Sequence record: OZ346158.1
DNA from: a phage
DNA length: 64,000 bases
Strand: one strand, 5' to 3'
Made by a program: the position numbers and the translations under genes. Positions 1-52,237 of the stretch are shown here, piece after piece (position 1 is the first letter of the stretch; each line of letters starts with the position of its first letter). The notes under the pieces are model-generated. The model was not told the DNA's origin, made no database searches, and worked only from the letters and a program-made list of their open reading frames with translations.

Positions 1-333
1 AATGAAGGCGGCGTTAGTTTCAAAAATGGGAAAAAACCAGAAGCGCTTTTGAAGCGGATTTTCGAAATGTGTACGCGAGAAGGTGATTTGGTATTGGATT
101 CATTCGGTGGTTCGGGAACTACTGCCGCTGTAGCTCACAAGATGAAAAGACGTTGGATCTCCATCGAGATTGGTGATCATTGCCATACCCATATTATTCC
201 GCGCTTGGAAAAAGTGATCGATGGGGAAGATCAAGGTGGTATTTCTAAGTCTGTAAACTGGCAAGGTGGTGGTGGCTTCCGTTATTACAAACTTGCCCCG
301 ACCTTAATTGCGAAAGATAAGTCTGATCAATAA
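1..333 (+). CDS. DNA methyltransferase, C-terminal fragment (gene starts upstream of window)
   Basis: Frame open from nt 1; translation ...PEALLKRIFEMCTREGDLVLDSFGGSGTT... matches the AdoMet-binding motif I (D-x-F-x-G-S-G-T-T) found at the C-terminus of beta-class N6A/N4C DNA methyltransferases. Confidence 0.7.
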   Translation, partial: NEGGVSFKNGKKPEALLKRIFEMCTREGDLVLDSFGGSGTTAAVAHKMKRRWISIEIGDHCHTHIIPRLEKVIDGEDQGGISKSVNWQGGGGFRYYKLAPTLIAKDKSDQ

Positions 334-346
334 AGAGTACAATCAA

Positions 347-652
347 ATGATGAAACGTTATAAACCATACACTTTTGAAATCGATTTCGAACTTGACGAT
401 ATGTTCACTGTAGAAGCTCAGGCAGTTGTCCAGTTGCCAGACCCGGAGTGCCGTGATTCTGATGTTGACTATTACGGATTTAGACAGATCACTGATGTGC
501 ATGTTTACCACAACGGTGAAGAGGTGGACTTCCACCAACTGCCAAACGATATTCGCCACTCAATTTACAAACGTGCAGCCCGTGAACTAGAGTCCTATCT
601 GGATGCAGCGACGACAGCAGCTGCATTTGCCGAAGAAGTGGGAGGTTTCTGA
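347..652 (+). CDS. hypothetical protein
   Basis: ORF track 308..652; internal ATG at 347 lies just past the upstream stop (MMKRYKPYTFE...). Confidence 0.5.
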   Translation: MMKRYKPYTFEIDFELDDMFTVEAQAVVQLPDPECRDSDVDYYGFRQITDVHVYHNGEEVDFHQLPNDIRHSIYKRAARELESYLDAATTAAAFAEEVGGF

Positions 653-1050
653 TGATTACAGGTGTGAAGATTCTCCAATACCACTTAACCAAATTGGAAG
701 ATGCTGAAAAAGAGCTTGCAGAAGTTCTGAATAGTGGATATACTTTGCTATCATGCGCCTGCTCAGACACCTACGTTGTGTGGACACTTATCCGGAAGGA
801 AGAGCCTGCAGGGATCTTGGTGCCAAACCCTAAGATTATTAGTGAGGTGGATGACTATTCCCAGGACGGCCTGCCAGAAGGCTGGGAAGTATGGGAAGGT
901 GGTGAAAACCCTGCACCAGGTAAGTGGGTAAAATATAAACTACGTAGTGGTGCACAGTACGCTGACTACTCTGATGACCTAGACTGGAGTCATTCTTCAC
1001 CAGGATCGTCTGCAAGTTCATATGATATCGTTGCTTTTCAGGAAGAATAA
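652..1050 (+). CDS. hypothetical protein
   Basis: 132-aa ORF; start overlaps upstream stop (tgATGa), same-strand gene chain. Confidence 0.55.
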   Translation: MITGVKILQYHLTKLEDAEKELAEVLNSGYTLLSCACSDTYVVWTLIRKEEPAGILVPNPKIISEVDDYSQDGLPEGWEVWEGGENPAPGKWVKYKLRSGAQYADYSDDLDWSHSSPGSSASSYDIVAFQEE

Positions 1051-1062
1051 GGAGATAGTGTT

Positions 1063-1545
1063 ATGTCAGATTTTATGTGGAAAGTAGGTTACGCAGCTCC
1101 TGAAATGTGTGAGGCTTGCTTTGTGAAAATAGGCCGCGAGGATATCGACAAAGTGATCCTTAAGTTTCGTGATGTGGCTGTGATCGGCAACCGAGTGCTT
1201 AAGCACTTAAAGAATCTGAAGCTCACCAAAAAGAAATTCTTCGGGCTTTTCGAAGAGAAAGTTGATGCTTGGACCCATTGCATTCAGGAAGCTAAATCTC
1301 ACTACAGTGCTATCGTTACCCCAGAACGGGTAGCCAAGATGGAAGGACTCATCAACAGCACAGAGTTTGAGTGTCTGAAAGCTGCACTCGATAGTTATCC
1401 GAAATGCCTCAAGCACTTGGACAAGTATGTAGAAAAGGATGGGGAAATGTATCTCACCCTGGACGCATATTATGAGATGCAAGAAATTTTAAATTTAGAT
1501 TTGACATTGGTATCCACCGAGTATACAATAGGTATCCGGGTTTAA
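1063..1545 (+). CDS. hypothetical protein
   Basis: 160-aa ORF preceded by aaggag RBS-like sequence; followed by terminator hairpin. Confidence 0.55.
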   Translation: MSDFMWKVGYAAPEMCEACFVKIGREDIDKVILKFRDVAVIGNRVLKHLKNLKLTKKKFFGLFEEKVDAWTHCIQEAKSHYSAIVTPERVAKMEGLINSTEFECLKAALDSYPKCLKHLDKYVEKDGEMYLTLDAYYEMQEILNLDLTLVSTEYTIGIRV

Positions 1546-1550
1546 CACTA

Positions 1551-1578
1551 GGCCCTGCCCGAAAGGGTGGGGCTTTTT
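1551..1578 (+). terminator. rho-independent terminator (GCCCTGCCC-GAAA-GGGTGGGGC + T5)
   Basis: 9-bp stem with GAAA tetraloop followed by TTTTT; identical core recurs at about 13180. Confidence 0.7.
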
Positions 1579-2361
1579 GCATTAGGAGACAGCAAATTGA
1601 AATTTATCTACAAAGAACACTACCACAAAGGTGTTGTGTGGAGCCTATTTGACGGATCTGGTGGTGCAGTCATTGACTGGGCAAAAGCTGGATATCTGTG
1701 CCTGTGCTTTAACGCAGAAGGTGCTGACCACGGCAGTTATGCAGAGGTGATCACCGATCATCCAAATATTCACTATGTAGATTATTGGATTGATCCATGG
1801 TTCCCTCAGGAAACTTTCTGCATGTACCCAGCTCCGGACTTTGTTCTTGCATTTCCTCCGTGCACCCACTTAGCGGTGTCAGGTGCTGCACACTTTAAGA
1901 AGAAGCTGGCTAAGGACCCGTTGATCCAGATTAATGCTGTAAAGGATGCTCGGGTTGCAGAAGAGTTGGGAGAGATTTACGATTGCCCGTGGCATGTAGA
2001 GAATCCTGTGGGTGTTATGTCCACACTGTGGCGCAAACCTGATTACCGTTTTCACCCTTCTGACTATGGCGGGTATTTACCGGAGGATGATGTAAACCCC
2101 TGGTTTCCTGAATTTATAGCTCCACGTGATGCCTATCCAAAAATAACTTGCGGCTGGATAGGTAATGGATTTATAATCCCGGCCACAAAACCTGTCCCGC
2201 AAATAGTTGACGCGGTTAGCGGGTATTCCATGCAACACGCCAAGCTGGGTGGAAAGAGTGCAAGAACGAAGATGATCCGAAGCCTCACACCACGTGGCTG
2301 GGCAAAAGCCGTATTCTTAGCAAACGAGCCTGTAGTAAGGAGCAGAATTAATGGGAAGTAA
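1567..2361 (+). CDS. DNA (cytosine-5)-methyltransferase-like protein
   Basis: LFDGSGG (motif I FxGxGG), FPPCTHLAVSG (motif IV PC-type), VENPVG (motif VI ENV-like); true start may be TTG near 1597 after aggaga. Confidence 0.6.
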   Translation: MGLFALGDSKLKFIYKEHYHKGVVWSLFDGSGGAVIDWAKAGYLCLCFNAEGADHGSYAEVITDHPNIHYVDYWIDPWFPQETFCMYPAPDFVLAFPPCTHLAVSGAAHFKKKLAKDPLIQINAVKDARVAEELGEIYDCPWHVENPVGVMSTLWRKPDYRFHPSDYGGYLPEDDVNPWFPEFIAPRDAYPKITCGWIGNGFIIPATKPVPQIVDAVSGYSMQHAKLGGKSARTKMIRSLTPRGWAKAVFLANEPVVRSRINGK

Positions 2362-4429
2362 ATTTATGGCATCTGCATACAACCGTTTCGGTGAGCCAAA
2401 CCCGAAAGCAACTAAGTATAAAAGTGGGGGAAGTGTGAAACGAGACTATCGTGATGAAAAAGAGGTTGAAACTGTAGAGACTGTTTTAGAAAATACTAAA
2501 ATTGTCCCTGTTCCACAACAAAATATCGGTCTGATGGCTGCACAATATTTTGGTGTGCGATCAGCATTGTCTCAAGAAGACGGTGTGACAGTTACTGCAA
2601 CATATTTCCCATATTACGACCGCTACGGAAATCTGTCAGGTTTCAAAAAGCGTGACTGGACGATTCCTAAAGAGCAAAGGGGCCATTTCTCAGTTGTTGG
2701 CATAGTAAAGGCTAACTCTCAGATGTTTGGGCAAAAGCTGTGTGCATCTTCCAACAACCGTAAGCAAATTAACGTTTGTGAGGGGGAAGGTGATGTTATT
2801 GCAGCATGGCAGGCTGCATATCAGATACAAGTAAAAGGGATTCTCACCAACGCTAAAGCCCCGGCAAAGGTGAAGCAGTGGGCTAAAGAGGTCCAGGACG
2901 GGATCGATGCAGTTATCAACGGTGGTGATCTGGCAGGAAAACCCTGCCTACCTTTTGTTGGAATTAACTGTGGATGTGCAAACGCAGTAGATACTTTTGC
3001 AAACAATGAGAAGTTTATCCGTAGCTATGGAACAGTTGTGCTGGCAATGGATAACGATGCAGCTAACGAGGTAGAGAAGCAAAAACACGTCATTAAAGGT
3101 GTCGAGGCCACGCACAATATCGCAGCATTTTTGATGGCTGATAACGTTTACCACGTAGAATACCCTGGTGAAGTAAACGACCCTGACGGTGTAAAAGATA
3201 TCCGAGACATGCTGAAGGCTAAAAAGCTGGAAGATATTGTCAACATGTTCCGGCATCCTGTTAAATATGTGCCTGATGCTGTGTCGGATTTAGAAGACTT
3301 CTCTATCGAGTCTTTGCGGAAAAAGACTTCCAACGGGGTAGATATCAGCGCAGAGTTCCCAAAACTGCAAAAAATGCTAAAAGGCTTGCACAAAGGTACA
3401 CTCGTAATGCTTACAGGCCCATCAGGTGGCGGTAAAACAACCGTAGCTAAAAAACTGGAACACTGTATTGCAAGATACCTAATGGACCCGACATGCCCGA
3501 AGGCTGATGACTATGAAGAGGATGATCGTCTATGTATGATCCATCTTGAGGAGGACCCAGAGGAAGCAATTAACTCCTTGTATGCAAACCAGTTAGGGTT
3601 TGATGTTAAAGAGTTTGTTGAAGATCCTAGCCAGTTTTTAACTGATCAAGAACACGCAGAGATTCATCAGTCATGGGCAAAAGCTGGAAAAATCAAAGTG
3701 TTCAAACATTTCGGGTCTATTCCGGTGGATGAGTTGATTACCAAGCTTAAGCAAATGGTTTGCCTGTACCATTGCCGTTATATTGTGCTGGATCACCTGT
3801 CCATGGTAATTTCAGGGCTTAATGTTAAGGATGAGCGAAAAGAACTGGACATGGCTATGACCCAACTGGCTGCGTTTTGTAAGCAGTTTAATGTGTTTAT
3901 CTTGGTGATCGCTCACCTCAAACGTACAGAGATTGTGCCTCCTAAGGACAAGGATGGTAACCCGTTACCTTTCTGGTATCCTGTGCGAAAAGAGAATTTG
4001 CGAGGATCGGCGGGGCTTGAACAGTTGAGTTGGGTAGTCATAGGTGTCGAGGCCGAAGAAATGGTGGATCGTTCTCGTGGACGTGTCCGTCTGGTAGGTC
4101 TTAAAAACCGTCCAGCAAAAACTCTAGGTATTGCTGACACTTTGGTTATGGACCCGCACACAGGTAAGTTCCATGATGCCAGTAATTGGTACTGGGACAA
4201 AGAAATGCAAATGTTTACAGACGGAGAAGGTGGGGAGGTTGTTTGGAGACCTCAGGCTATGTTTGAGGATCAGGAGCATGCAGTTGTAGAAACACCTATG
4301 GGCAAGGTTGTGGCTGATAAGGTTGTAACACCCACTGTCAAGCCTATTGACACGCAGGAAGACCTCCAATACGATGATCCATCCTCTGATCCGGTCCCTG
4401 GTTTTGAGGATGATGAAACACCTTTTTAA
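2351..4429 (+). CDS. DNA primase/helicase (T7 gp4-like; TOPRIM + DnaB-type helicase)
   Basis: CEGEGDVIAAW (TOPRIM E-G-x-x-D), Walker A LTGPSGGGKTT, 692 aa, immediately upstream of DNA polymerase. Confidence 0.75.
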   Translation: MGSKFMASAYNRFGEPNPKATKYKSGGSVKRDYRDEKEVETVETVLENTKIVPVPQQNIGLMAAQYFGVRSALSQEDGVTVTATYFPYYDRYGNLSGFKKRDWTIPKEQRGHFSVVGIVKANSQMFGQKLCASSNNRKQINVCEGEGDVIAAWQAAYQIQVKGILTNAKAPAKVKQWAKEVQDGIDAVINGGDLAGKPCLPFVGINCGCANAVDTFANNEKFIRSYGTVVLAMDNDAANEVEKQKHVIKGVEATHNIAAFLMADNVYHVEYPGEVNDPDGVKDIRDMLKAKKLEDIVNMFRHPVKYVPDAVSDLEDFSIESLRKKTSNGVDISAEFPKLQKMLKGLHKGTLVMLTGPSGGGKTTVAKKLEHCIARYLMDPTCPKADDYEEDDRLCMIHLEEDPEEAINSLYANQLGFDVKEFVEDPSQFLTDQEHAEIHQSWAKAGKIKVFKHFGSIPVDELITKLKQMVCLYHCRYIVLDHLSMVISGLNVKDERKELDMAMTQLAAFCKQFNVFILVIAHLKRTEIVPPKDKDGNPLPFWYPVRKENLRGSAGLEQLSWVVIGVEAEEMVDRSRGRVRLVGLKNRPAKTLGIADTLVMDPHTGKFHDASNWYWDKEMQMFTDGEGGEVVWRPQAMFEDQEHAVVETPMGKVVADKVVTPTVKPIDTQEDLQYDDPSSDPVPGFEDDETPF

Positions 4430-4487
4430 TGTTTAACAAAGAGTGGGAGGGGTAGTACAACCGCCTCCCCTTTAAGGAGAACTGTAT

Positions 4488-6881
4488 ATGAGCATGTGGT
4501 CGTTCGACTTTGAGTCATCCGGTTTGCTGGAAGATCCAGATCTTTATTATCACTGCGGCCTGTTTAAAGAGCTGAATAAGAACCGTTTTATGCTGTTCCT
4601 TCCTCTAAATGACCGCACACACTACTCCGAAGAGGATATAGAGAAGGCTAAGAACTTTATTCTGGCAAAGAAAACTCTTCATAAAGATTTTGAAGTTCGC
4701 ATAGCAGATTTTTCGGAGTTGGAAGGTTGGCTTACAGGCAATTCCGACTGGTCACCAACAGCTTTGAACTGCCATAACTGCTACAGTTATGACTTTATGC
4801 TGATGGAAAGATTATCCGGTATTCATTTTGATATGTTCCGTGATCCTAAATGCATGGGGACTATCAACGACCACCAGGTTAACCTGTTTGATACGTTGGC
4901 TATGAGCCGAATCTTGTGGCCTGATCGCCCTTTACCAAAAGGTTGTCCGGACGCTGTATTCAACCCGGTTACTAAGAAAATGCAACCTGTTGGTCCTCAC
5001 GGCCTTATGGCATGGGGCTACGCCCTTGGTAACCAGAAAGTTCAAATTGATGACTGGCGCGATCTTCCGCTGTGGAAATATGTGGATCGTGTGTTCGAGG
5101 ACGTTATCATCCAGGAGTTGCTCTGGAAAGAGTTGGTAGCGGAATCAAAAGGTGTATTCTACGGCAAATCTGACATGCAGAACTTTATGTATGACCCTGC
5201 CAAAGAGAAGCCTAAAGGATTCAAGAAGATTACCTGGAAGAATGCATTACGCCGAGGCATGCTGCAGCATTTCCTGATGGAGCTGCAGGCTCGACAGGGT
5301 GTGTATTTCGACATAGATGGGGCTATTGCTTTACGTGACCGCTGCGATGCGTGGATGAAAGAGATCGCTGATCGTGTTGAACCACAACTTCCTTTAAAAG
5401 AGTTATCAATGTCTCAGCGGCCTAAGTTCCCTGAAAAGCCGTTTAACCAGGATGGGACAATCTCCAATAATGGTTGGAAATGGTTAAAAGATAAGCTTGG
5501 CTATCCTGTAGACATGAGCGCTTTAGAATTCAAAGCCCCGCCTAAGCGAGCATTTACCTCCACAGGAGATGTCAGCAAGATGGGGATAAAATGGTGCGAA
5601 GAGATGGGCTGCAAAGACCCCGACAAGATGGCTGATTTCTTGAGAGGTTATATTAAGGGCACCTCCACACCACAACCTTTACCTAAAGAGCTGATGGATC
5701 AGGCAATAAGTGATCTGCAGCAGAAGCGAATGCCTGACTGCAAGATACCTATGAAAATCAGCAATCAGGACGACATTAAGCGATACCTGATCAGTGCTGG
5801 TTGGCTTCCGACAATGTGGAGAACTAAGGATGTAACTAAGGACAGCAAGAAGAAAGCTCTACCTGATGCAGATGTTGATGCACGAGTATATGCATACATG
5901 GACGAGCTTTTAGAGTCAGAGTATTGTGACCTAATTATCAACTTCTGGAACAAAACTGATGCTAAGTTTCAGACAACAGTGCACAAGTTCCGAAGCTTTC
6001 CTAACTCCGAAAGGATTAAAAAGGAAGTGTTCGGGAAAATACGCAGAAAAGCCAGGGCACTTATTACTTCTCCGCAACTGAAAGATACGTTTGGACACCT
6101 ATGTCCGAATCTTGAAAAATTGAACGGAGAGATGGCTAAAGATATCGTCTTGTGGTTATCATTGCGAAACCGCAGATCGGTCCTTGATCCAATCAAGGAG
6201 GATAAGGTTGATACTGGTCTTCTTAATCACCCACGTTTGAAGATTGACCATAAGCTTCCTGCTAAAAGCTCTGGATTAACAAACACTTCCCGACAGAAAC
6301 ACAGTATTTGTGCAAACATGCCTAAACCATCTCCTAAAGTGGTTATGGGTAAAGAGATGCGTAGCTTGTGGGGTGTTCCTCCTGGATACTTTGAGATCGG
6401 TATTGACGGGTCCAACTTAGAGCAGCTTATCGGGGCTTGGGGTGCCTTTGAGTTCGACAACGGCTTGTACTATGATGTTGTAAGTAACGGGGACGCACAC
6501 CAAAACAATGCTGAGGCATATACAAAAGTAGCAGGCAGAGAGGTGTCTCGTAACGACGGTAAACCTATCACGTATGGGGTTATGTACGGGGCACAAAAAG
6601 ATAAAGTTGCAGATATGCTGGATATCTCCCCAGAGTTGGGGCAAAGGGTGATCGATGCACTTTGGGATGCCAACCCCGGTCTTAAGGGGCGCAAAGAGGA
6701 TCTGGAGAAATTCTGGGAAGCAACGGGTAAGAAGTTTATCTACTCTTTTGATGGTCATGCCATCTGGACCCGATCTAAACACTCTTTACTTAATGCATAC
6801 CAACAGAATGGTGGTGCATCGCTGTGTGACTTGGTTGGGATACTTATGCACCACCAAATGGTGAAGCGTGGGTGGTACGAT
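4488..6881 (+). CDS. DNA polymerase, family A (T7-like), exon 1 (ORF runs to in-frame stop at 6917 inside the intron)
   Basis: N-terminal 3'-5' exo motif FDFESSG; KPITYGVMYGAQ resembles motif B; tail GASLCDLVGILMHHQMVKRGW aligns with the segment just upstream of motif C in T7 gp5 as recalled. Confidence 0.85.
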
Positions 6882-23136: not shown

Positions 23137-23276
23137 TAACGGCCCCGATCCCTGGGGCCTAACTTTTCAAATTTTTTTCTCCCTGAGTGTTGCAATCCGA
23201 TCCAGAATATGGATAATAACAATCAACGGGGAGACACTCCCCACCGCATAGACAAAGTTCCAAAAGGAGAAACAAA

Positions 23277-23477
23277 ATGAGCAACAATATCCGCGTTATT
23301 AACTTCAAAAAAGAAGAAAAAATTGCCGTGCTGATTGACGGTCAAGAAATCTTTAAAGGTGATTATGAAGATCATCAAACGGCGATTAGTATCACTCGCG
23401 TGATTGGTTACCATAATTTTTACCCTCAAGGCGCTGAGGCAGCAGTAAAACGAATTAAAGAGATTGTAGGCCTGTAA
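23277..23477 (+). CDS. hypothetical protein
   Basis: 66 aa; RBS aaaggagaaac; preceded by GGGGAGACACTCCCC hairpin. Confidence 0.55.
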   Translation: MSNNIRVINFKKEEKIAVLIDGQEIFKGDYEDHQTAISITRVIGYHNFYPQGAEAAVKRIKEIVGL

Positions 23478-34630: not shown

Positions 34631-35029
34631 TTACTGAACAGAGCGCGGTGCTGGGAAGGATAACTCTTCTAAAGAGAAGATTTCATTTCCTACCACCCAA
34701 GTTGCTGGGTCATCTGGATCAACAGGTTGGATAATCATTACCTCATCCGCCTCGCACACACGTTTCCCACCCATAGTAGCGTCAGCCACTAACATACGCG
34801 GCTCTTCAGAAATGCACAGGTAGCCACCTCGGCCCACTGTTCCTTCCACGGGATCCTGCCCTTTGACCACAATGAATACCTTCTCTCCTGTGGAGATATT
34901 ACTTTTCACACTAACAGTTTGACCAACTTTAGATGTACCGATCTTGGTGGCTTCAAACATTAAATCCCGAATTACTGTTGCATAGTTGCCGGACACTTTC
35001 TTACCTTCTTTAGTAATCTCAATCTTCAT
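34631..35029 (-). CDS. hypothetical protein
   Basis: 132-aa ORF. Confidence 0.5.
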   Translation of the reverse strand: MKIEITKEGKKVSGNYATVIRDLMFEATKIGTSKVGQTVSVKSNISTGEKVFIVVKGQDPVEGTVGRGGYLCISEEPRMLVADATMGGKRVCEADEVMIIQPVDPDDPATWVVGNEIFSLEELSFPAPRSVQ

Positions 35030-35301
35030 AATCTAGGCTCCTTAAATGAATCTATGTAATCAATTAAATCCCAAGCATCGCGATGGGCTGTCAGAGGGTA
35101 TACTTCTCCGAGAGGGATCATAGCAATAAGTCTATCAAAAACCCAGTCTGGACGCAACATTTTATGGTGATATTCCCACTCACCTTCCACAGATTTTTTC
35201 TGAGTGATCAGGATCTCTGTGTAGTGTTTCGCCTGTCTTGAGTAGATTGAAAATGACTTGTACATAAATGACCCCCTCTTGTTGAAAACAACAATACACA
35301 A
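35026..35301 (-). CDS. hypothetical protein
   Basis: 91-aa ORF. Confidence 0.5.
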   Translation of the reverse strand: MCIVVFNKRGSFMYKSFSIYSRQAKHYTEILITQKKSVEGEWEYHHKMLRPDWVFDRLIAMIPLGEVYPLTAHRDAWDLIDYIDSFKEPRL

Positions 35302-35616
35302 CTACCAGGTTACTGTCAAGTAGGCAACCGTATTATTTTTCTCTGGGGAGATGCCAACAACATCTACCTGCAGACCTCCTGCCCTTAAATCTCCAACAAT
35401 GTGCGGGAAGTAATCTGAGAGATGCGAGGGTAGATTTATCGAAAATCCGCACCCCAGAAAGCCTGCTAACGCTTTATTTTGTATCTCCCCTACAATCGCA
35501 TCATAAATGGAGTTAAGCTCGTCAGGGAGCGTTACAGGGCGTTTTAGCGCTAGCTGGTGTAATTTGTCCTTAGCACTCATTTTCATTTCAGGTCTACCTC
35601 TGGGGGTGCCAACCAC
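35302..35616 (-). CDS. hypothetical protein (start probably internal, near 35586)
   Basis: ORF overlaps upstream gene by about 34 nt; internal Met codons available. Confidence 0.45.
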   Translation of the reverse strand: MVGTPRGRPEMKMSAKDKLHQLALKRPVTLPDELNSIYDAIVGEIQNKALAGFLGCGFSINLPSHLSDYFPHIVGDLRAGGLQVDVVGISPEKNNTVAYLTVTW

Positions 35617-36116
35617 ATAAACGGCGGCAAGTCTAAACGGTTTTTCTTATCCCACACAAAATATGCATATGCTTGCCCGTCAGTTCTGCCGTTTGATTGA
35701 AATGATGGACGCTTAGATATTGTGATCACAGTAGTAGGTGCATTATCAAGCCACCATTCAAATCTGGCTTTGCTTTCCAGAAAATTAAGACGCAAAAGCA
35801 TAATAACTACGTCAGCATCTTTCAACGCCTTGTCTACAAACTCACGAGCCAGGCTGTATGGTGGGTTGGTGATAATACAGTCAACATGGTTGTATTCTGT
35901 ATTCAGATAGTCAACACCTTCTTGTATTTCTCCCCATGCAGATCCTAACGGCATACGGGAGTAGAACACACCTGAGGCACTATTCCTGCAAGGCTCTAAG
36001 TAGGTCCAGTCTTCTGGGAACGGAATAAGGTCATACAGCCCTTCTGCACACCACTCCGGTGTCACATACTCATCGTAGGCGTTACGTTGTTCATCAGGTT
36101 TTCTAGCACAAGTCAT
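35583..36116 (-). CDS. DNA N6-adenine methyltransferase (small phage Dam-like)
   Basis: IITNPPYS (motif IV NPPY) and LEPCRNSASGVF (AdoMet-binding region). Confidence 0.7.
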   Translation of the reverse strand: MTCARKPDEQRNAYDEYVTPEWCAEGLYDLIPFPEDWTYLEPCRNSASGVFYSRMPLGSAWGEIQEGVDYLNTEYNHVDCIITNPPYSLAREFVDKALKDADVVIMLLRLNFLESKARFEWWLDNAPTTVITISKRPSFQSNGRTDGQAYAYFVWDKKNRLDLPPFMWLAPPEVDLK

Positions 36117-36167
36117 GCAAATCTCCAGATCATAAAAGCCCTCCGAAGAGGGCTTTAGAATTAATGT

Positions 36168-37217
36168 TTAAGCTTCTTCGACAATTCCTGCACCCAGGAT
36201 TTTTTCATTGAGCTCTTTTGCTGTTTTAATAATATTGTCCACCAGACGCTTGCGAGTCTTATCTTTCACCTTAACCTCTTCACCGCCGTTCAGAGTAGTC
36301 TTCAATTGAGACAGAATATCCTGAAGTTCAACGACAGAGAATCTCTGCAGATCTTCTGAAGTAATCTCACTCAGGGCAATTCTGACGGTCTCGCCACTTT
36401 CCATCTGCAGATTCAGGAACACAGTGTGAACATCACCTTTCGAACCACCCGCTTTTGCAGATTCAACAGCATGAACTAACTCATCTAAAGATGTGCACTG
36501 GTGAATCTCCGGAAGACCTGCTTCACCTAACACGCCTTCTTCATCACCTTTTGCCAGAAGCTTTTTCGGTTTTTGTCCGTTCTGGATGCGTTGTATGTTG
36601 CCTTCATCCAGAATAATAGCTCCAGTGCGTGCTGCCAGCTCTTCTCCGTCCAACCACACTTCGCCACCAGCTGTGATGGATGCGATCTCATCTTCTGTCA
36701 GCACCCCACCGTAGTATTTTTCGATCAGGCGTTCAAAACGTTTTTTCCAGTAGCTGACCTGAGTATTCATGTTCACACCGTTACCATAAGTGCCACCTTG
36801 ATAGTAGTGGAACATAAACTCTGTGTCCGGAGCCACAGTACGTTCTTTACAACCAAGCCATAAGATTGTTCCAGCAGAGCAGCACATCCCTTCAGCATGT
36901 GCAACAACGCTTGCCTGAGACTCTCGGAATGCCTGCAGATAAGCCATTGCAATGTGCACGCAACCCCCAGGACTATTGATGATCACCCGAATGCTTTCTT
37001 CCGGCTGAGCCATACGGATCGTCTGCAGACGAGACATATGATCTTGTAAGTCTTCCAAATCGTCGATATAAAGAACGTGGTCAACAACAGGTGTTGGGTA
37101 GCTGTATGTTTCCATGATACCGCCCGGCATACCGAACATTTTATTACTCATAGGTTCGAAACCGTTCTGTTTTTCTTTCATGCCGTGTACCATGGTTCTG
37201 CGAGGTGTTAAATTCAT
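36168..37217 (-). CDS. ClpP-like serine protease
   Basis: IINSPGG and GMCCSAGTIL match ClpP catalytic-region motifs (INSPGG ... G-x-AAS-x-G); long C-terminal extension. Confidence 0.7.
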   Translation of the reverse strand: MNLTPRRTMVHGMKEKQNGFEPMSNKMFGMPGGIMETYSYPTPVVDHVLYIDDLEDLQDHMSRLQTIRMAQPEESIRVIINSPGGCVHIAMAYLQAFRESQASVVAHAEGMCCSAGTILWLGCKERTVAPDTEFMFHYYQGGTYGNGVNMNTQVSYWKKRFERLIEKYYGGVLTEDEIASITAGGEVWLDGEELAARTGAIILDEGNIQRIQNGQKPKKLLAKGDEEGVLGEAGLPEIHQCTSLDELVHAVESAKAGGSKGDVHTVFLNLQMESGETVRIALSEITSEDLQRFSVVELQDILSQLKTTLNGGEEVKVKDKTRKRLVDNIIKTAKELNEKILGAGIVEEA

Positions 37218-37277
37218 GAGAAATCCTTAATATTGGAAGTTGAAAGCTATTTATTTAAACCTGATTCACATTTACCT

Positions 37278-37589
37278 TTATTTAGCAATCACTATGGAAT
37301 ACTTACGATTGTCAGAAGCATCACAACTCAATGATTGCCAGTCTACCACATACCACGTATCATTGTCAACAATTACTTTATCGCCTGTTCTGTAGCAAGT
37401 GCTGCTTTCAATAATTCGAGACTCGATAAAGAATCTGTGTCGGCGCTCACGTAGCAACGCTAAGTTAATTATATTACCACCGCTGTCCTTGGTCCACACA
37501 TTCTTGGATCCCTTATTTGCCAAAATTGTCTCGCCGTTATAGACAAACAGGCAGTATATTTTATTCAGTTTCTCTTGTATTGTAGCCAT
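37278..37589 (-). CDS. hypothetical protein
   Basis: 103-aa ORF. Confidence 0.5.
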   Translation of the reverse strand: MATIQEKLNKIYCLFVYNGETILANKGSKNVWTKDSGGNIINLALLRERRHRFFIESRIIESSTCYRTGDKVIVDNDTWYVVDWQSLSCDASDNRKYSIVIAK

Positions 37590-48908: not shown

Positions 48909-49516
48909 TCTTCTTGGGCCTCTTTAGCATCAATATACTTGCACACAATCTCCGATGCACACTCCCAAGGTGCACCTTCAGGGTTTACAACATCAAACTC
49001 AACCCCTTTTATTCCGTTCTTTTCCAGACTTAGATAGGTTCTGGAATCATTTCCCCAGTCATATCCTACACGGTGAATACGGAACAACAACAGATCTCCA
49101 CCTGTGCTGTATGCGTACTCGCTAAGGCATGCCAGCTCCTCTTTGAATCCCCCATCGGAGTAAACAATAACCCCTTTACCTTCAGGGAAATCTTTCTTCA
49201 AAGATGCGACTGCGGCTTTACCGAAAGCATCTTCACCAAAGATAGGTTTAATCAGATTTTCACTACAATGGATCATCCATTCTCGCGGAGAAACATGCTT
49301 GCCGTCTATCATTAAGAAAGGGCAAGGCTCTTCTTTGTAGTGGCGGTCATAAAGTGCATTCCAGAGTTGAGGAGTTACACCAGCTGCCTTAATTGCCACA
49401 CTGAAGAGCATTTCCTTAACCTCACGGTGGTGTGAGTTAGGAATAGCTTCCAACAAGAGATCTGCAATGTGATCCTTACCACTGCTGGGTGGGGCGTTAA
49501 GAACAATAATATCCAT
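48902..49516 (-). CDS. P-loop dNMP kinase-like protein
   Basis: IIVLNAPPSSGKDHIAD resembles the T4 gene 1 dNMP kinase P-loop (SGKD); nucleotide-metabolism neighbourhood. Confidence 0.45.
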   Translation of the reverse strand: MDIIVLNAPPSSGKDHIADLLLEAIPNSHHREVKEMLFSVAIKAAGVTPQLWNALYDRHYKEEPCPFLMIDGKHVSPREWMIHCSENLIKPIFGEDAFGKAAVASLKKDFPEGKGVIVYSDGGFKEELACLSEYAYSTGGDLLLFRIHRVGYDWGNDSRTYLSLEKNGIKGVEFDVVNPEGAPWECASEIVCKYIDAKEAQEEC

Positions 49517-49719
49517 TAAAAACCTCCGTGGTATTCTTCAACTGCATCAATAATACTTTTACACTTATCTACCAGCTCGTTAGCCACTACAGCATCGTCT
49601 TCCCAAACAGCCTCCTCAATCTGATCAAGCAATGATCGCATCTTACTCATCATTTCTGGGATAAAGTTTTCTGAAAAGCTGTCTGGAATTGTTAACTCTA
49701 GTGTCATTTCGGTCTCCAA
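49516..49719 (-). CDS. hypothetical protein
   Basis: 67-aa acidic ORF. Confidence 0.45.
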   Translation of the reverse strand: METEMTLELTIPDSFSENFIPEMMSKMRSLLDQIEEAVWEDDAVVANELVDKCKSIIDAVEEYHGGF

Positions 49720-49734
49720 TCATACTATGCGTTA

Positions 49735-50193
49735 TTAGAAGTTTGTTTTTACACGTCCCTTCTCATCAACCTCGTTGTTAGCTAAAAGCGTTACAAAGTC
49801 TGTGAAACGAACATGAAGAACCCTTTTCTTATCAAGGTATCCTAAAGCCACCCCTGAGAAATTTAGCATCAAAGGGGCTAAAGAAGCTCTGGCACTGAAA
49901 TGCTGTTGTTCTACCCTTCCAACACCCTTAGTGTAGGATGGGTTAAGATTGTAAGTTCTGAATCCCAGTTTTGTTGGAGCTTTAGAATTAAAAACGACTT
50001 TATAGCGTTTCTTACTCAACTTATGCTCCAGGATAAGCATTCCCTTATCACCTTTGATAAGTTGAAAATCTGTAAAGTGCTCTTTTAAGACGAAAGGTAG
50101 TGCCAGTCCCATCGCCTGTCCTCTTTGTACCGCTGTCTCACCAAAAGCTTTTGCATCAGTAAGTTCTTTGGTCAAGTCTATGCTTTTGATCAT
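49735..50193 (-). CDS. hypothetical protein
   Basis: 152-aa ORF. Confidence 0.5.
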   Translation of the reverse strand: MIKSIDLTKELTDAKAFGETAVQRGQAMGLALPFVLKEHFTDFQLIKGDKGMLILEHKLSKKRYKVVFNSKAPTKLGFRTYNLNPSYTKGVGRVEQQHFSARASLAPLMLNFSGVALGYLDKKRVLHVRFTDFVTLLANNEVDEKGRVKTNF

Positions 50194-51004
50194 ACCTGGT
50201 CTCCAAAATGTATTGTAGTTCTTTCTTACCTATACTCTTCATTCCAGCAGTCTTACCTGCTTCTTCTTGAAAAGAAGAATAGCATTCAGCAAACACTCTG
50301 TCAACACCGTTAACTAAAGATTTTATGAAATATGTTGATTCTTCAGATTTTGGGTCATCATCCCCCAATACTTTTCCAGCATTATACCCAACACGTCTTA
50401 CACAGAAGTCGTAGTCATCTGGTGTGCTAAAAGAAAATAACTTATTCTCTCCAATCTCTACAGGATCCCTATTGCACGCCTTTTTCTCCCAAATTTGGAA
50501 AACACATGGCACGTCATAAGGTTTGCCATTAAGTAAAAACGAATTCTTAGGGCACCTTTCGCTGTAGACAAGGTGCATCGACATGTCCAGTTTGTTTGCA
50601 AAAAATATTTTTTCAAATGTCCGTGGCAAGATGAAGGCTATAGCCCCTCCAAGCTCTAGCAATGATGCACAATGGTTAAAGAATTTGCAAGCTAAGGATG
50701 AATTCTTGCCAAATGGTGGGTTACCTATGAAGACATCTGCCTTGGGATGCACCTCCAAGAAGTTTGCCTGAATGCACGGTGTTGGTCCTTCAAATTCAGG
50801 ATCTGGTACTAAATCGTACGACAGTATCTCTGAAAATAGTTTTGAAAAAGAACCCCTTCCAGCAGAAGGCTCAACGTATGCACAATTCCCATACTTATCT
50901 TTTACTTTACCAACAAGATATTCTGCATACTCAGGGTTTGTGTAGTATTTGTCGTTGGACTCTTTCTTGCTCAAAGTGCCTCCAAAAGGAAAAGGGAGGC
51001 GCAA
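50156..51004 (-). CDS. DNA N6-adenine methyltransferase
   Basis: YVEPSAGRGSF (motif I) and FIGNPPFG (motif IV NPPF). Confidence 0.7.
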   Translation of the reverse strand: MRLPFPFGGTLSKKESNDKYYTNPEYAEYLVGKVKDKYGNCAYVEPSAGRGSFSKLFSEILSYDLVPDPEFEGPTPCIQANFLEVHPKADVFIGNPPFGKNSSLACKFFNHCASLLELGGAIAFILPRTFEKIFFANKLDMSMHLVYSERCPKNSFLLNGKPYDVPCVFQIWEKKACNRDPVEIGENKLFSFSTPDDYDFCVRRVGYNAGKVLGDDDPKSEESTYFIKSLVNGVDRVFAECYSSFQEEAGKTAGMKSIGKKELQYILETRYDQKHRLDQRTY

Positions 51005-51019
51005 GCCTCCCTATAATTG

Positions 51020-52003
51020 TTAGATTATCTGAATCAGGGTATTTTTCATTTCTTCTCTGGTGCGGATGTTGTTACGGTCACGAACAACAGATCCACAACC
51101 TTCGCAGCGGTATGTTTTAAATGCACTCAGTTGAGTATACGCCAAAGCTTCTTCCTCGTGAAGGTGTTCTCCACCACAGCGTGGGCAACGAACTTTTGGC
51201 TCCTCATCCTGGTAGTACAATGACATGTTGGGGTGCTGCTTAGCAAACGGGCGAGCCAGCAAATACAGGCCTTCCAGAGATAGGATATCGCCAACATTGT
51301 ACTCCCGCATCTGTTTAAACGCCTCAAGATCACCGTGAACACACTTGATCCACATTTCAAATGTGTGGTCAATCAGTTTCTGTCGGGCAAGTTGGAAGTA
51401 TTTGCATGCATACTCCAAAGTGTTTGCATTCAAACGGAATGCCTTCTTGATCATTTTAAGGGTGTCAACCTCTTTGTAGGGGCTTGTTGGAGGCAATCCG
51501 TGAAATGCAAATCGTTGGTTGGCCCACCCACAGTCAAAACCTGAATTGTGGGCTACTGCGACATCACATTTATCCAGATAATACCACAAATCCTGAATCA
51601 ATTCGAGATCATTGTGAATATCCTCATCCCACATTTTGTAATCAGGAAGAGCGCAGTCAACCACACTAGGACTGTCTAACCACTTACCTGCGAAAGTTAG
51701 CATGTAGGGCATAATTTCAATACCGCAGGTTTGAATGTTGGTCTTATAGTGCCCAAAGAACCAGCCGTTTGTTGGAGATGTCTCTGTATCATACACCCAA
51801 ACTTTAGCACCTTTGTGCTCTTCAAGGAAGCGCTCCGTTGCTTCTCCTACAATCTCTGACATATTCTCTTGTGCACGTTTAAGCTGTAGTCGGATCCAGC
51901 TCTCACGTGACTCACGGCCTAAAAATTCACGAGCAATTTGTCTATTAGTGTATCCCTGTTGCTTTAGTGTTAAAATTTGCTCAAGAGTTAACTTTGTCAT
52001 CAT
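51020..52003 (-). CDS. DnaQ-like 3'-5' exonuclease with N-terminal HTH and C-terminal zinc ribbon
   Basis: VYDTET (Exo I), AHNSGFD (Exo II), DEDD-type; N-terminal LTLKQQGYTNRQIAREF HTH-like; C-terminal CPRCG...CEGCG. Confidence 0.6.
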   Translation of the reverse strand: MMTKLTLEQILTLKQQGYTNRQIAREFLGRESRESWIRLQLKRAQENMSEIVGEATERFLEEHKGAKVWVYDTETSPTNGWFFGHYKTNIQTCGIEIMPYMLTFAGKWLDSPSVVDCALPDYKMWDEDIHNDLELIQDLWYYLDKCDVAVAHNSGFDCGWANQRFAFHGLPPTSPYKEVDTLKMIKKAFRLNANTLEYACKYFQLARQKLIDHTFEMWIKCVHGDLEAFKQMREYNVGDILSLEGLYLLARPFAKQHPNMSLYYQDEEPKVRCPRCGGEHLHEEEALAYTQLSAFKTYRCEGCGSVVRDRNNIRTREEMKNTLIQII

Positions 52004-52015
52004 CGTTAAGATTCC

Positions 52016-52237
52016 TTAGTAAAACTGAAGAATGTCTTTTAAAGCGAAGTCACGATATTCGCCCTTGTCTACATCGAAGGCACGCATCAACCACTGCTCT
52101 TCTTTATGATACTCTGTAGAGCCAAACCATAAATTAGGCTCAGTAACGCAGCGATCTGCAACAACACCTTTCCAGTTACGGTATTTCATCCTGATCAGAA
52201 CTGAATCGCAAGGATTGAATACCTTTTTCATCCCCAT
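52016..52237 (-). CDS. hypothetical protein
   Basis: 73-aa ORF. Confidence 0.45.
   Translation of the reverse strand: MGMKKVFNPCDSVLIRMKYRNWKGVVADRCVTEPNLWFGSTEYHKEEQWLMRAFDVDKGEYRDFALKDILQFY

Follow-up and report, generated by a model that had tools for sequence, protein, structure and literature searches.

Why a phage should carry several DNA methyltransferases without restriction partners, and in particular a C5-cytosine methyltransferase that looks too short for its class, is the question raised by a 64,000-nucleotide stretch of phage DNA (sequence record OZ346158.1; hereafter the window, meaning the whole stretch that was analysed). Judging by its nucleotide similarity, the window is part of the genome of a Vequintavirus (rV5-like) phage of Escherichia coli, and we consider it highly probable that it encodes four conserved orphan S-adenosylmethionine (SAM)-dependent DNA methyltransferases (MTases) whose most likely benefit is narrow protection from restriction–modification (RM) systems. 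A first-pass annotation of the same DNA had proposed at least four MTase genes, and all four open reading frames (ORFs) are indeed present with their motifs. They belong to three classes and are located in the early and replication modules, as listed here together with a hairpin that bears on one of the start codons (lengths in amino acids, aa).

Positions 1 to 333, plus strand: 3' end of the gene for a beta-class, type III Mod-like N6-adenine (N6/N4) MTase (PF01555; motif I DSFGGSGTT).
Positions 1597 to 2361, plus strand: 'Dcm-like' C5-cytosine MTase of 254 aa, with a TTG start and AGGAG at 1584–1588.
Positions 35583 to 36116, minus strand: minimal gamma-class amino-MTase core of 177 aa, with a TP motif, LEPC-x-N/G and TNPPYS.
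Positions 50156 to 50974, minus strand: gamma-class MTase of 272 aa with a compact C-terminal domain, EPSAGRGSF as motif I and GNPPFG as motif IV.
Positions 1550 to 1575, plus strand: terminator-like hairpin and T-run from a terminator scan, after the upstream gene at 1063–1545.

In a database search, bases 1–6000 of the window share 99.1% identity with Escherichia phage MaxBurger (BASEL Bas54, MZ501093.1) and 97–98% with some 100 further rV5-like phages in the genus Vequintavirus, and two other MTase-bearing regions of the window match phages slur16 and rV5_ev147 at 99.9–100% identity. All four genes have been annotated as MTases before, in more than 100 public records: MaxBurger labels bas54_0070 and bas54_0170 'putative N6 adenine methyltransferase' and bas54_0074 'Dcm-like C5 cytosine methyltransferase', and the fourth gene has homologues that are likewise labelled MTases in the BASEL phages WalterGehring, JohannBauhin and JeffSchatz. 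The four genes are a conserved, already annotated trait of a well-sampled group of phages, that is, ordinary and known. All of them are solitary, an adjoining restriction partner being absent from the annotations of the homologous regions of MaxBurger.

The cytosine enzyme had been described as C5-like on the basis of FxGxGG, PC and ENV-like motifs; its C5 identity holds, and its motifs are in fact FDGSGG, PPC and ENP rather than the textbook forms. The protein matches phrog_757 'DNA methyltransferase' (7e-87) and carries SLFDGSGG as motif I, FPPC as motif IV (with Cys89), ENP as motif VI (with Glu135) and a C-terminal RSLTPRG. A word-indexed search returned 3,522 matches to relatives of the protein, an exhaustive profile search returned 2,081 clusters at 50% identity (200–280 aa in nearly all of the 150 listed), and a tblastn search with one member as the query hit 1,529 of 50,697 phage records, among them Drexlerviridae, Dhillonvirus, Vequintavirus and related large myoviruses, and T1-like Klebsiella phages. 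For 76 diverse members of this family (210–261 aa, median 237), Cys89, Glu135, Pro154, Tyr180, Trp187 and Pro195 are invariant throughout, and Asn136 and Pro137 are conserved in 95% and 99%, respectively. Conservation in residues 150–200 equals that of the catalytic motifs, and the only variable stretch comprises about 16 residues (201–216). The alignment thus indicates that the large, variable target-recognition domain is absent from the family, and the low variability in its place suggests a specificity common to the family members, not a diversified one. The earlier remark that the protein (then taken as 264 aa) is unusually short is right against HhaI (327 aa) and HaeIII (330 aa), and the window protein falls short of HhaI, HaeIII and Dcm by about 70–220 aa; within its own family, however, the remark fails, and short length is a family trait, not an anomaly.

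A hidden Markov model (HMM) of the family brings motif I, the PC cysteine and the ENP/ENV motif into line with those of HaeIII, DNMT3A and Dcm. An hhalign comparison with a four-sequence canonical C5 alignment (unverified sequences for HhaI, HaeIII and DNMT3A, Dcm from MG1655) gave a probability of 94% and an E value of 1.4e-7 over 206 columns, and motifs I, IV and VI again lined up. The counterparts of SLFDGSGG are LFSGAGG in HaeIII and SLFDGIATG in DNMT3A (the deep-family consensus, LFDxTG, is degenerate), Glu135 of the ENP motif aligns with the ENV of Dcm and HhaI, and RSLTPRG falls, at low confidence, on motif IX (RxLTPRE) of HhaI. The alignment of the catalytic cysteine, a check proposed in the first-pass annotation, was carried out: the context of Cys89 is kept in 76 of 76 diverse relatives and aligns with the motif IV cysteine of HaeIII, DNMT3A, Dcm and HhaI. 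The predicted structure is of high confidence, and its fold matches almost exclusively C5-MTases. As far as the alignments allow, the family has kept the catalytic core of C5-MTases (motif I, PPC, ENP and RxxTPRG), and, with a short and highly conserved segment replacing the variable recognition domain, its nearest counterpart in architecture is the catalytic domain of DNMT3.

Several results weigh against this assignment. A motif VIII (QxRxR) was not identifiable in the protein by hhalign, nor was a separate motif X (GN.V) found, the protein ending about 20 aa past RSLTPRG. Pfam and NCBIfam scans of the window protein gave no match, and only 5 of the 76 family members touch PF00145, weakly (best E 0.0039). 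Sequence and profile searches with the family against PDB sequences were not significant: a shallower profile gave nine matches, all C5-MTases, at E 0.19–0.26, and with a deeper profile the C5-MTase matches were lost in noise from short-chain dehydrogenases/reductases (SDR). In contrast to DNMT3A/3B and the classical C5-MTases of PF00145, the window protein has ENP for ENV and lies below the Pfam threshold. The family is thus invisible to Pfam and NCBIfam, and its recognition needs fold or profile–profile methods.

The assignment is supported by a relative that has been tested. Phage K42, the genome of which is 95.4% identical to that of the BASEL phage KarlJaspers (Bas06), was studied in a preprint on retron Ec86 (10.1101/2023.08.16.553469). 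In that study, K42 mutants that escape Ec86 disrupt or potentially disrupt a 711-bp gene for a 'Dcm-like C5 cytosine methyltransferase'; expression of K42 dcm in E. coli MG1655 raised 5-methylcytosine (5mC) on multicopy single-stranded DNA (msDNA), as measured by liquid chromatography coupled to mass spectrometry (LC-MS); the mutant C82A/E128A/K175A/K176A was inactive; and the predicted structure of the enzyme was superposed by the authors on DNMT3A (10.1101/2023.08.16.553469). The target of the K42 enzyme, CCWGG, was assumed and not mapped, and the 35 Ec86-sensitive phages listed belong to Drexlerviridae, Siphoviridae and Demerecviridae (10.1101/2023.08.16.553469). The finding on K42 dcm and the retron was restated in a 2026 paper (PMC12916289). 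The KarlJaspers gene bas06_0055 is exactly 711 bp, and its product shares 53% identity with the window C5 protein along the entire length (E 4e-86). C82, E128 and K175 of K42 correspond to C89, E135 and K182 of the window protein, whereas the second lysine, K176, is replaced by Ile183. Both proteins are short (236 aa for the K42 type, 254 aa in the window) and the genes of both lie close to a helicase or primase gene within a replication module; the phages differ in type, the window belonging to a 136-kb myovirus and K42/KarlJaspers being 51-kb T1-like siphoviruses. By analogy with the K42 homologue, which provides the experimental support, we take the short family to be 5mC-forming. For the phage that carries the tested relative, this 5mC activity is a liability, as it triggers retron Ec86/Eco1.

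The ORF at the left edge of the window consists of the last 110 codons and the stop of a gene whose full-length MaxBurger homologue encodes 441 aa. Its reading as the C-terminus of a beta-class MTase was confirmed: the 110-aa fragment matches Pfam N6_N4_Mtase (PF01555) above threshold (E 1.5e-18; 68 bits, cut-off 26.7), with motif I at the C-terminus, and also phrog_67 (3.5e-28), and the full-length homologue matches PF01555 over residues 67–393 (E 1.5e-42; 146.5 bits). Among solved structures, type III Mod subunits come closest (6k0w, 1.2e-28; EcoP15I Mod, 2.7e-24), and with these the enzyme shares PF01555 and significant similarity. Unlike these, it is an orphan, an adjoining Res subunit not being annotated in MaxBurger, and it is shorter than Mod (441 aa, of which the window holds the last 110 only, against 618–644 aa).

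From its motifs and profile matches, the 177-aa NPPY protein is a probable N6-adenine DNA MTase, and the earlier call of an NPPY enzyme at 35583–36116 stands, with LEPC...TNPPYS present and a family profile that matches TaqI. The gene starts at an ATG with GGAG 6 nt upstream, and the protein matches phrog_799 'DNA methyltransferase' (8e-67). The profile of its family (51 sequences) has M.TaqI as its best match (1.1e-5), with the TP, motif I and NPPY segments aligned, and matches other DNA adenine MTases too; the presumed Rossmann MTase fold rests on this TaqI match. Its matches to Pfam EcoRI_methylase and Dam were below threshold, as were those to NCBIfam. The 272-aa NPPF protein also matches phrog_799, and its structure model (282 residues modelled, mean predicted local distance difference test (pLDDT) 90.7) has a Rossmann MTase fold; its Pfam and NCBIfam matches were all below threshold, and PF26055, which is precomputed for its homologues, was an entry not found in the Pfam copy searched. 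Both proteins share the motif order TP, ExxxGxG, NPP[YF] with M.TaqI, M.BseCI, CamA and the MTase part of MmeI, and both are much smaller than the matched gamma-class chains (382–751 aa). In a direct BLASTP comparison of the 177-aa protein with the 282-aa form of the NPPF protein, no significant paralogy was found.

For these two proteins, a role on RNA has to be weighed, namely that the NPPF protein, and possibly also the NPPY protein, is an N6-methyladenosine (m6A) MTase of the METTL5/Erm/KsgA kind that acts on ribosomal or transfer RNA. The best profile matches of the 272-aa family are Ta1320 (4.5e-4) and METTL5 (0.03), followed by TaqI; some homologues bear the JGI name 'predicted RNA methylase' and one matches RrnaAD; the 177-aa family profile also matches ErmC' (5e-5 to 1e-4). 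Moreover, the best catalytic-domain matches of the NPPF model are RNA m6A MTases, over about 150 residues and the catalytic domain only, and the NPPY protein has no recognisable DNA target-recognition domain, being a bare catalytic core. However, M.TaqI is the top match of the 177-aa family, both proteins match a PHROG labelled 'DNA methyltransferase', and the NPPF model aligns with BseCI, MmeI, TaqI and CamA over 225–252 of its 282 residues, including the C-terminal domain, an extent at which only gamma-class DNA adenine MTases align. This two-domain match favours a DNA N6-adenine MTase; we accordingly regard an RNA substrate as unlikely and, on the strength of the model, the 272-aa protein as a probable N6-adenine DNA MTase.

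Self-methylation of phage DNA would be the natural reading of solitary MTases in early and replication modules, and from the presence of the genes, their folds, the conservation of their catalytic residues and the homology to a tested enzyme we infer activity, target motifs and a role as follows. Cys89 would attack a flipped-out cytosine at C6, and SAM would donate its methyl group to C5, yielding 5mC on replicating phage DNA and on other accessible DNA, while the adenine MTases would make N6-methyladenine, each at its own motif. Progeny DNA could in this way be guarded from particular cognate RM systems, not from restriction at large, at the cost of a 5mC activity that may be sensed by retron Eco1. 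In the window, GATC and CCWGG occur at 1.54 and 1.67 times the base-composition expectation, respectively, and are not avoided, counts that are too crude for inferring specificity.

The first-pass annotation had gone further and read the four MTases as extensive self-methylation against most host RM systems, that is, as a broad anti-restriction shield. The number of genes, their three classes and their location in early and replication modules are in keeping with such a shield; for the related phage BME3, which has four MTases, this role was stated by inference from annotation (PMC12210895), and likewise for the relative CB7, with cytosine and adenine methylases, where a ClaI digest pattern was consistent with Dam-type methylation (PMC7344957). 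The BASEL phenotypes point the other way: Vequintavirinae were 'exceptionally susceptible' to six RM systems of types I, II and III, apparently without effective protection, and in the Drexlerviridae of the same study MTase genes had no simple link to restriction resistance (PMC8594841). MaxBurger, the near-identical relative of the left end of the window, is itself a phage of that collection (locus tags bas54). We therefore hold a broad shield to be distinctly unlikely. Given the same susceptibility, any protection must be narrow and motif-specific, against other cognate specificities, and even such a role is no more than putative. Literature searches found no methylome data for Vequintavirus. 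The rV5-like phages, highly RM-sensitive as they are, serve in phage-therapy work and in studies of the BASEL type.

It is also conceivable, and in our view very unlikely, that the short C5-MTase is not a sequence-specific protector of double-stranded DNA at all and instead acts as a DNMT3-like oligomer of relaxed or structure-dependent specificity, with a role other than anti-restriction. Relaxed specificity is suggested by the lack of a variable recognition domain and of a separate motif X, together with the high conservation of the segment after motif VI, and a different role by the high restriction sensitivity of near-identical phages. If so, its substrates could be, for example, hairpin or single-stranded replication intermediates, which would explain the methylation of retron msDNA.

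That the short protein transfers another group (for example, carboxymethyl from carboxy-S-adenosylmethionine (Cx-SAM), as phage CmoX does) or is a DNA-binding relic that has lost its catalytic activity is extremely improbable; DNMT3A also has an arginine (R891) at the motif X position and yet uses SAM, and the E. coli MG1655 host supplies Cx-SAM. CmoX is marked by an SPPC motif, an arginine replacing Asn304 of HhaI and, usually, phage CmoA and amide-ligase genes nearby (PMC12783734), whereas the window protein has FPPC, its candidate Arg233 is conserved in less than 85% of the deep family, hhalign places RSLTPRG at motif IX and not motif X, CmoA and amide-ligase genes are not among the annotations of the homologous region of MaxBurger (no search was aimed at them), the tested K42 homologue made 5mC in MG1655 (10.1101/2023.08.16.553469), and the invariant cysteine and glutamate argue against a dead enzyme.

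Returning to the four DNA MTases, the case has little significance beyond correct annotation, multiple orphan MTases being known in rV5-like phages and their relatives; what is useful is that two start codons need correction. The ORF limits given in the first-pass annotation can be kept for 1–333 and 35583–36116, whereas the starts at 1567 and 51004 lie in terminator-like hairpins and are probably wrong. GTG 1567, the former start of the C5-MTase, lies inside the hairpin at 1550–1575 (a stem of 11 pairs, 7 of them GC, and then TTTGCATT), and TTG 1597 has AGGAG 8 nt upstream and agrees with the GenBank annotation and a 254-aa cluster representative, so that a start at 1597 and a length of 254 aa are likely. 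For the NPPF enzyme, formerly placed at 50156–51004, the motif and MTase class stand and the start moves: TTG 51004 is in the loop of a hairpin with a T-run, GGAGGC-TTGC-GCCTCC (51002–51010, minus strand), directly upstream of the gene, and the annotated start, TTG 50974, which gives 272 aa, is the most likely one.

Near these genes, we also observed that a sigma-70 promoter-like site (1501–1529, plus strand; TTGACA-17-TACAAT, 11/12) lies within the 3' end of the ORF upstream of the C5-MTase gene. The strong hairpin at 1550–1575 stands between this site and the gene, so that a transcript would need to read through it; as sequence features, the two could reflect attenuation or merely overlapping signals. 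A hairpin with a T-run (36136–36155, minus strand; AAGCCCTC-TTCG-GAGGGCTT) lies directly upstream of the 177-aa gene. The GC-rich hairpins upstream of both minus-strand MTase genes resemble terminators of the preceding genes, for a DnaQ-like exonuclease and a ClpP-like protein, and each minus-strand MTase gene may thus be a separately regulated unit.

A regular-expression scan for MTase motif IV covered every one of the window's 265 ORFs with 70 aa or more and found no further [DN]PP[YFW] ORF beyond the two with NPP[YF]; the sole extra match to the wider pattern [DNS]PP[YFWH] is an SPPH in the 85-aa ORF at 23220–23474. A fifth MTase was considered in the 152-aa ORF at 49735–50193 (minus strand) and rejected, as it lacks any MTase motif and its sole match is phrog_9938 (unknown function). 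The label 'putative DNA N6-adenine methyltransferase' that it bears in phage nimi and others is probably a propagated mis-annotation. The ORF and the NPPF MTase gene overlap by 38 nt at the 3' end of the latter, and the ORF could be a translationally coupled partner. Between the Mod-like MTase and the C5-MTase lies a small protein gene (308–652, plus strand; annotated start about 350), the product of which strongly matches phrog_4240 (unknown function) and weakly matches small 'DNA methyltransferase' PHROGs (phrog_1573, 3.6e-5; phrog_2060, 0.009); it is too short for an MTase, and these PHROG labels may reflect guilt by association.

ARAGORN found no tRNA genes in the whole window. The genes for the C5-MTase and the 177-aa MTase lie about 4.3 kb closer together than in MaxBurger MZ501093.1, from which the window phage differs by insertions and deletions in a region of small ORFs. 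The best matches shift along the window, from MaxBurger at the left end to slur16 and rV5_ev147 towards the right, a pattern that points to a mosaic genome. Finally, the window is matched at 1–6000, 35000–37300 and 49500–52100 by 16–20 GenBank entries that bear the name 'Campylobacter phage' (MG065xxx, host Campylobacter jejuni). Among the matches listed, these records are 97.7–99.9% identical to the E. coli rV5-like sequence of the window, and they are probably mislabelled or contaminant assemblies, not true Campylobacter phages.

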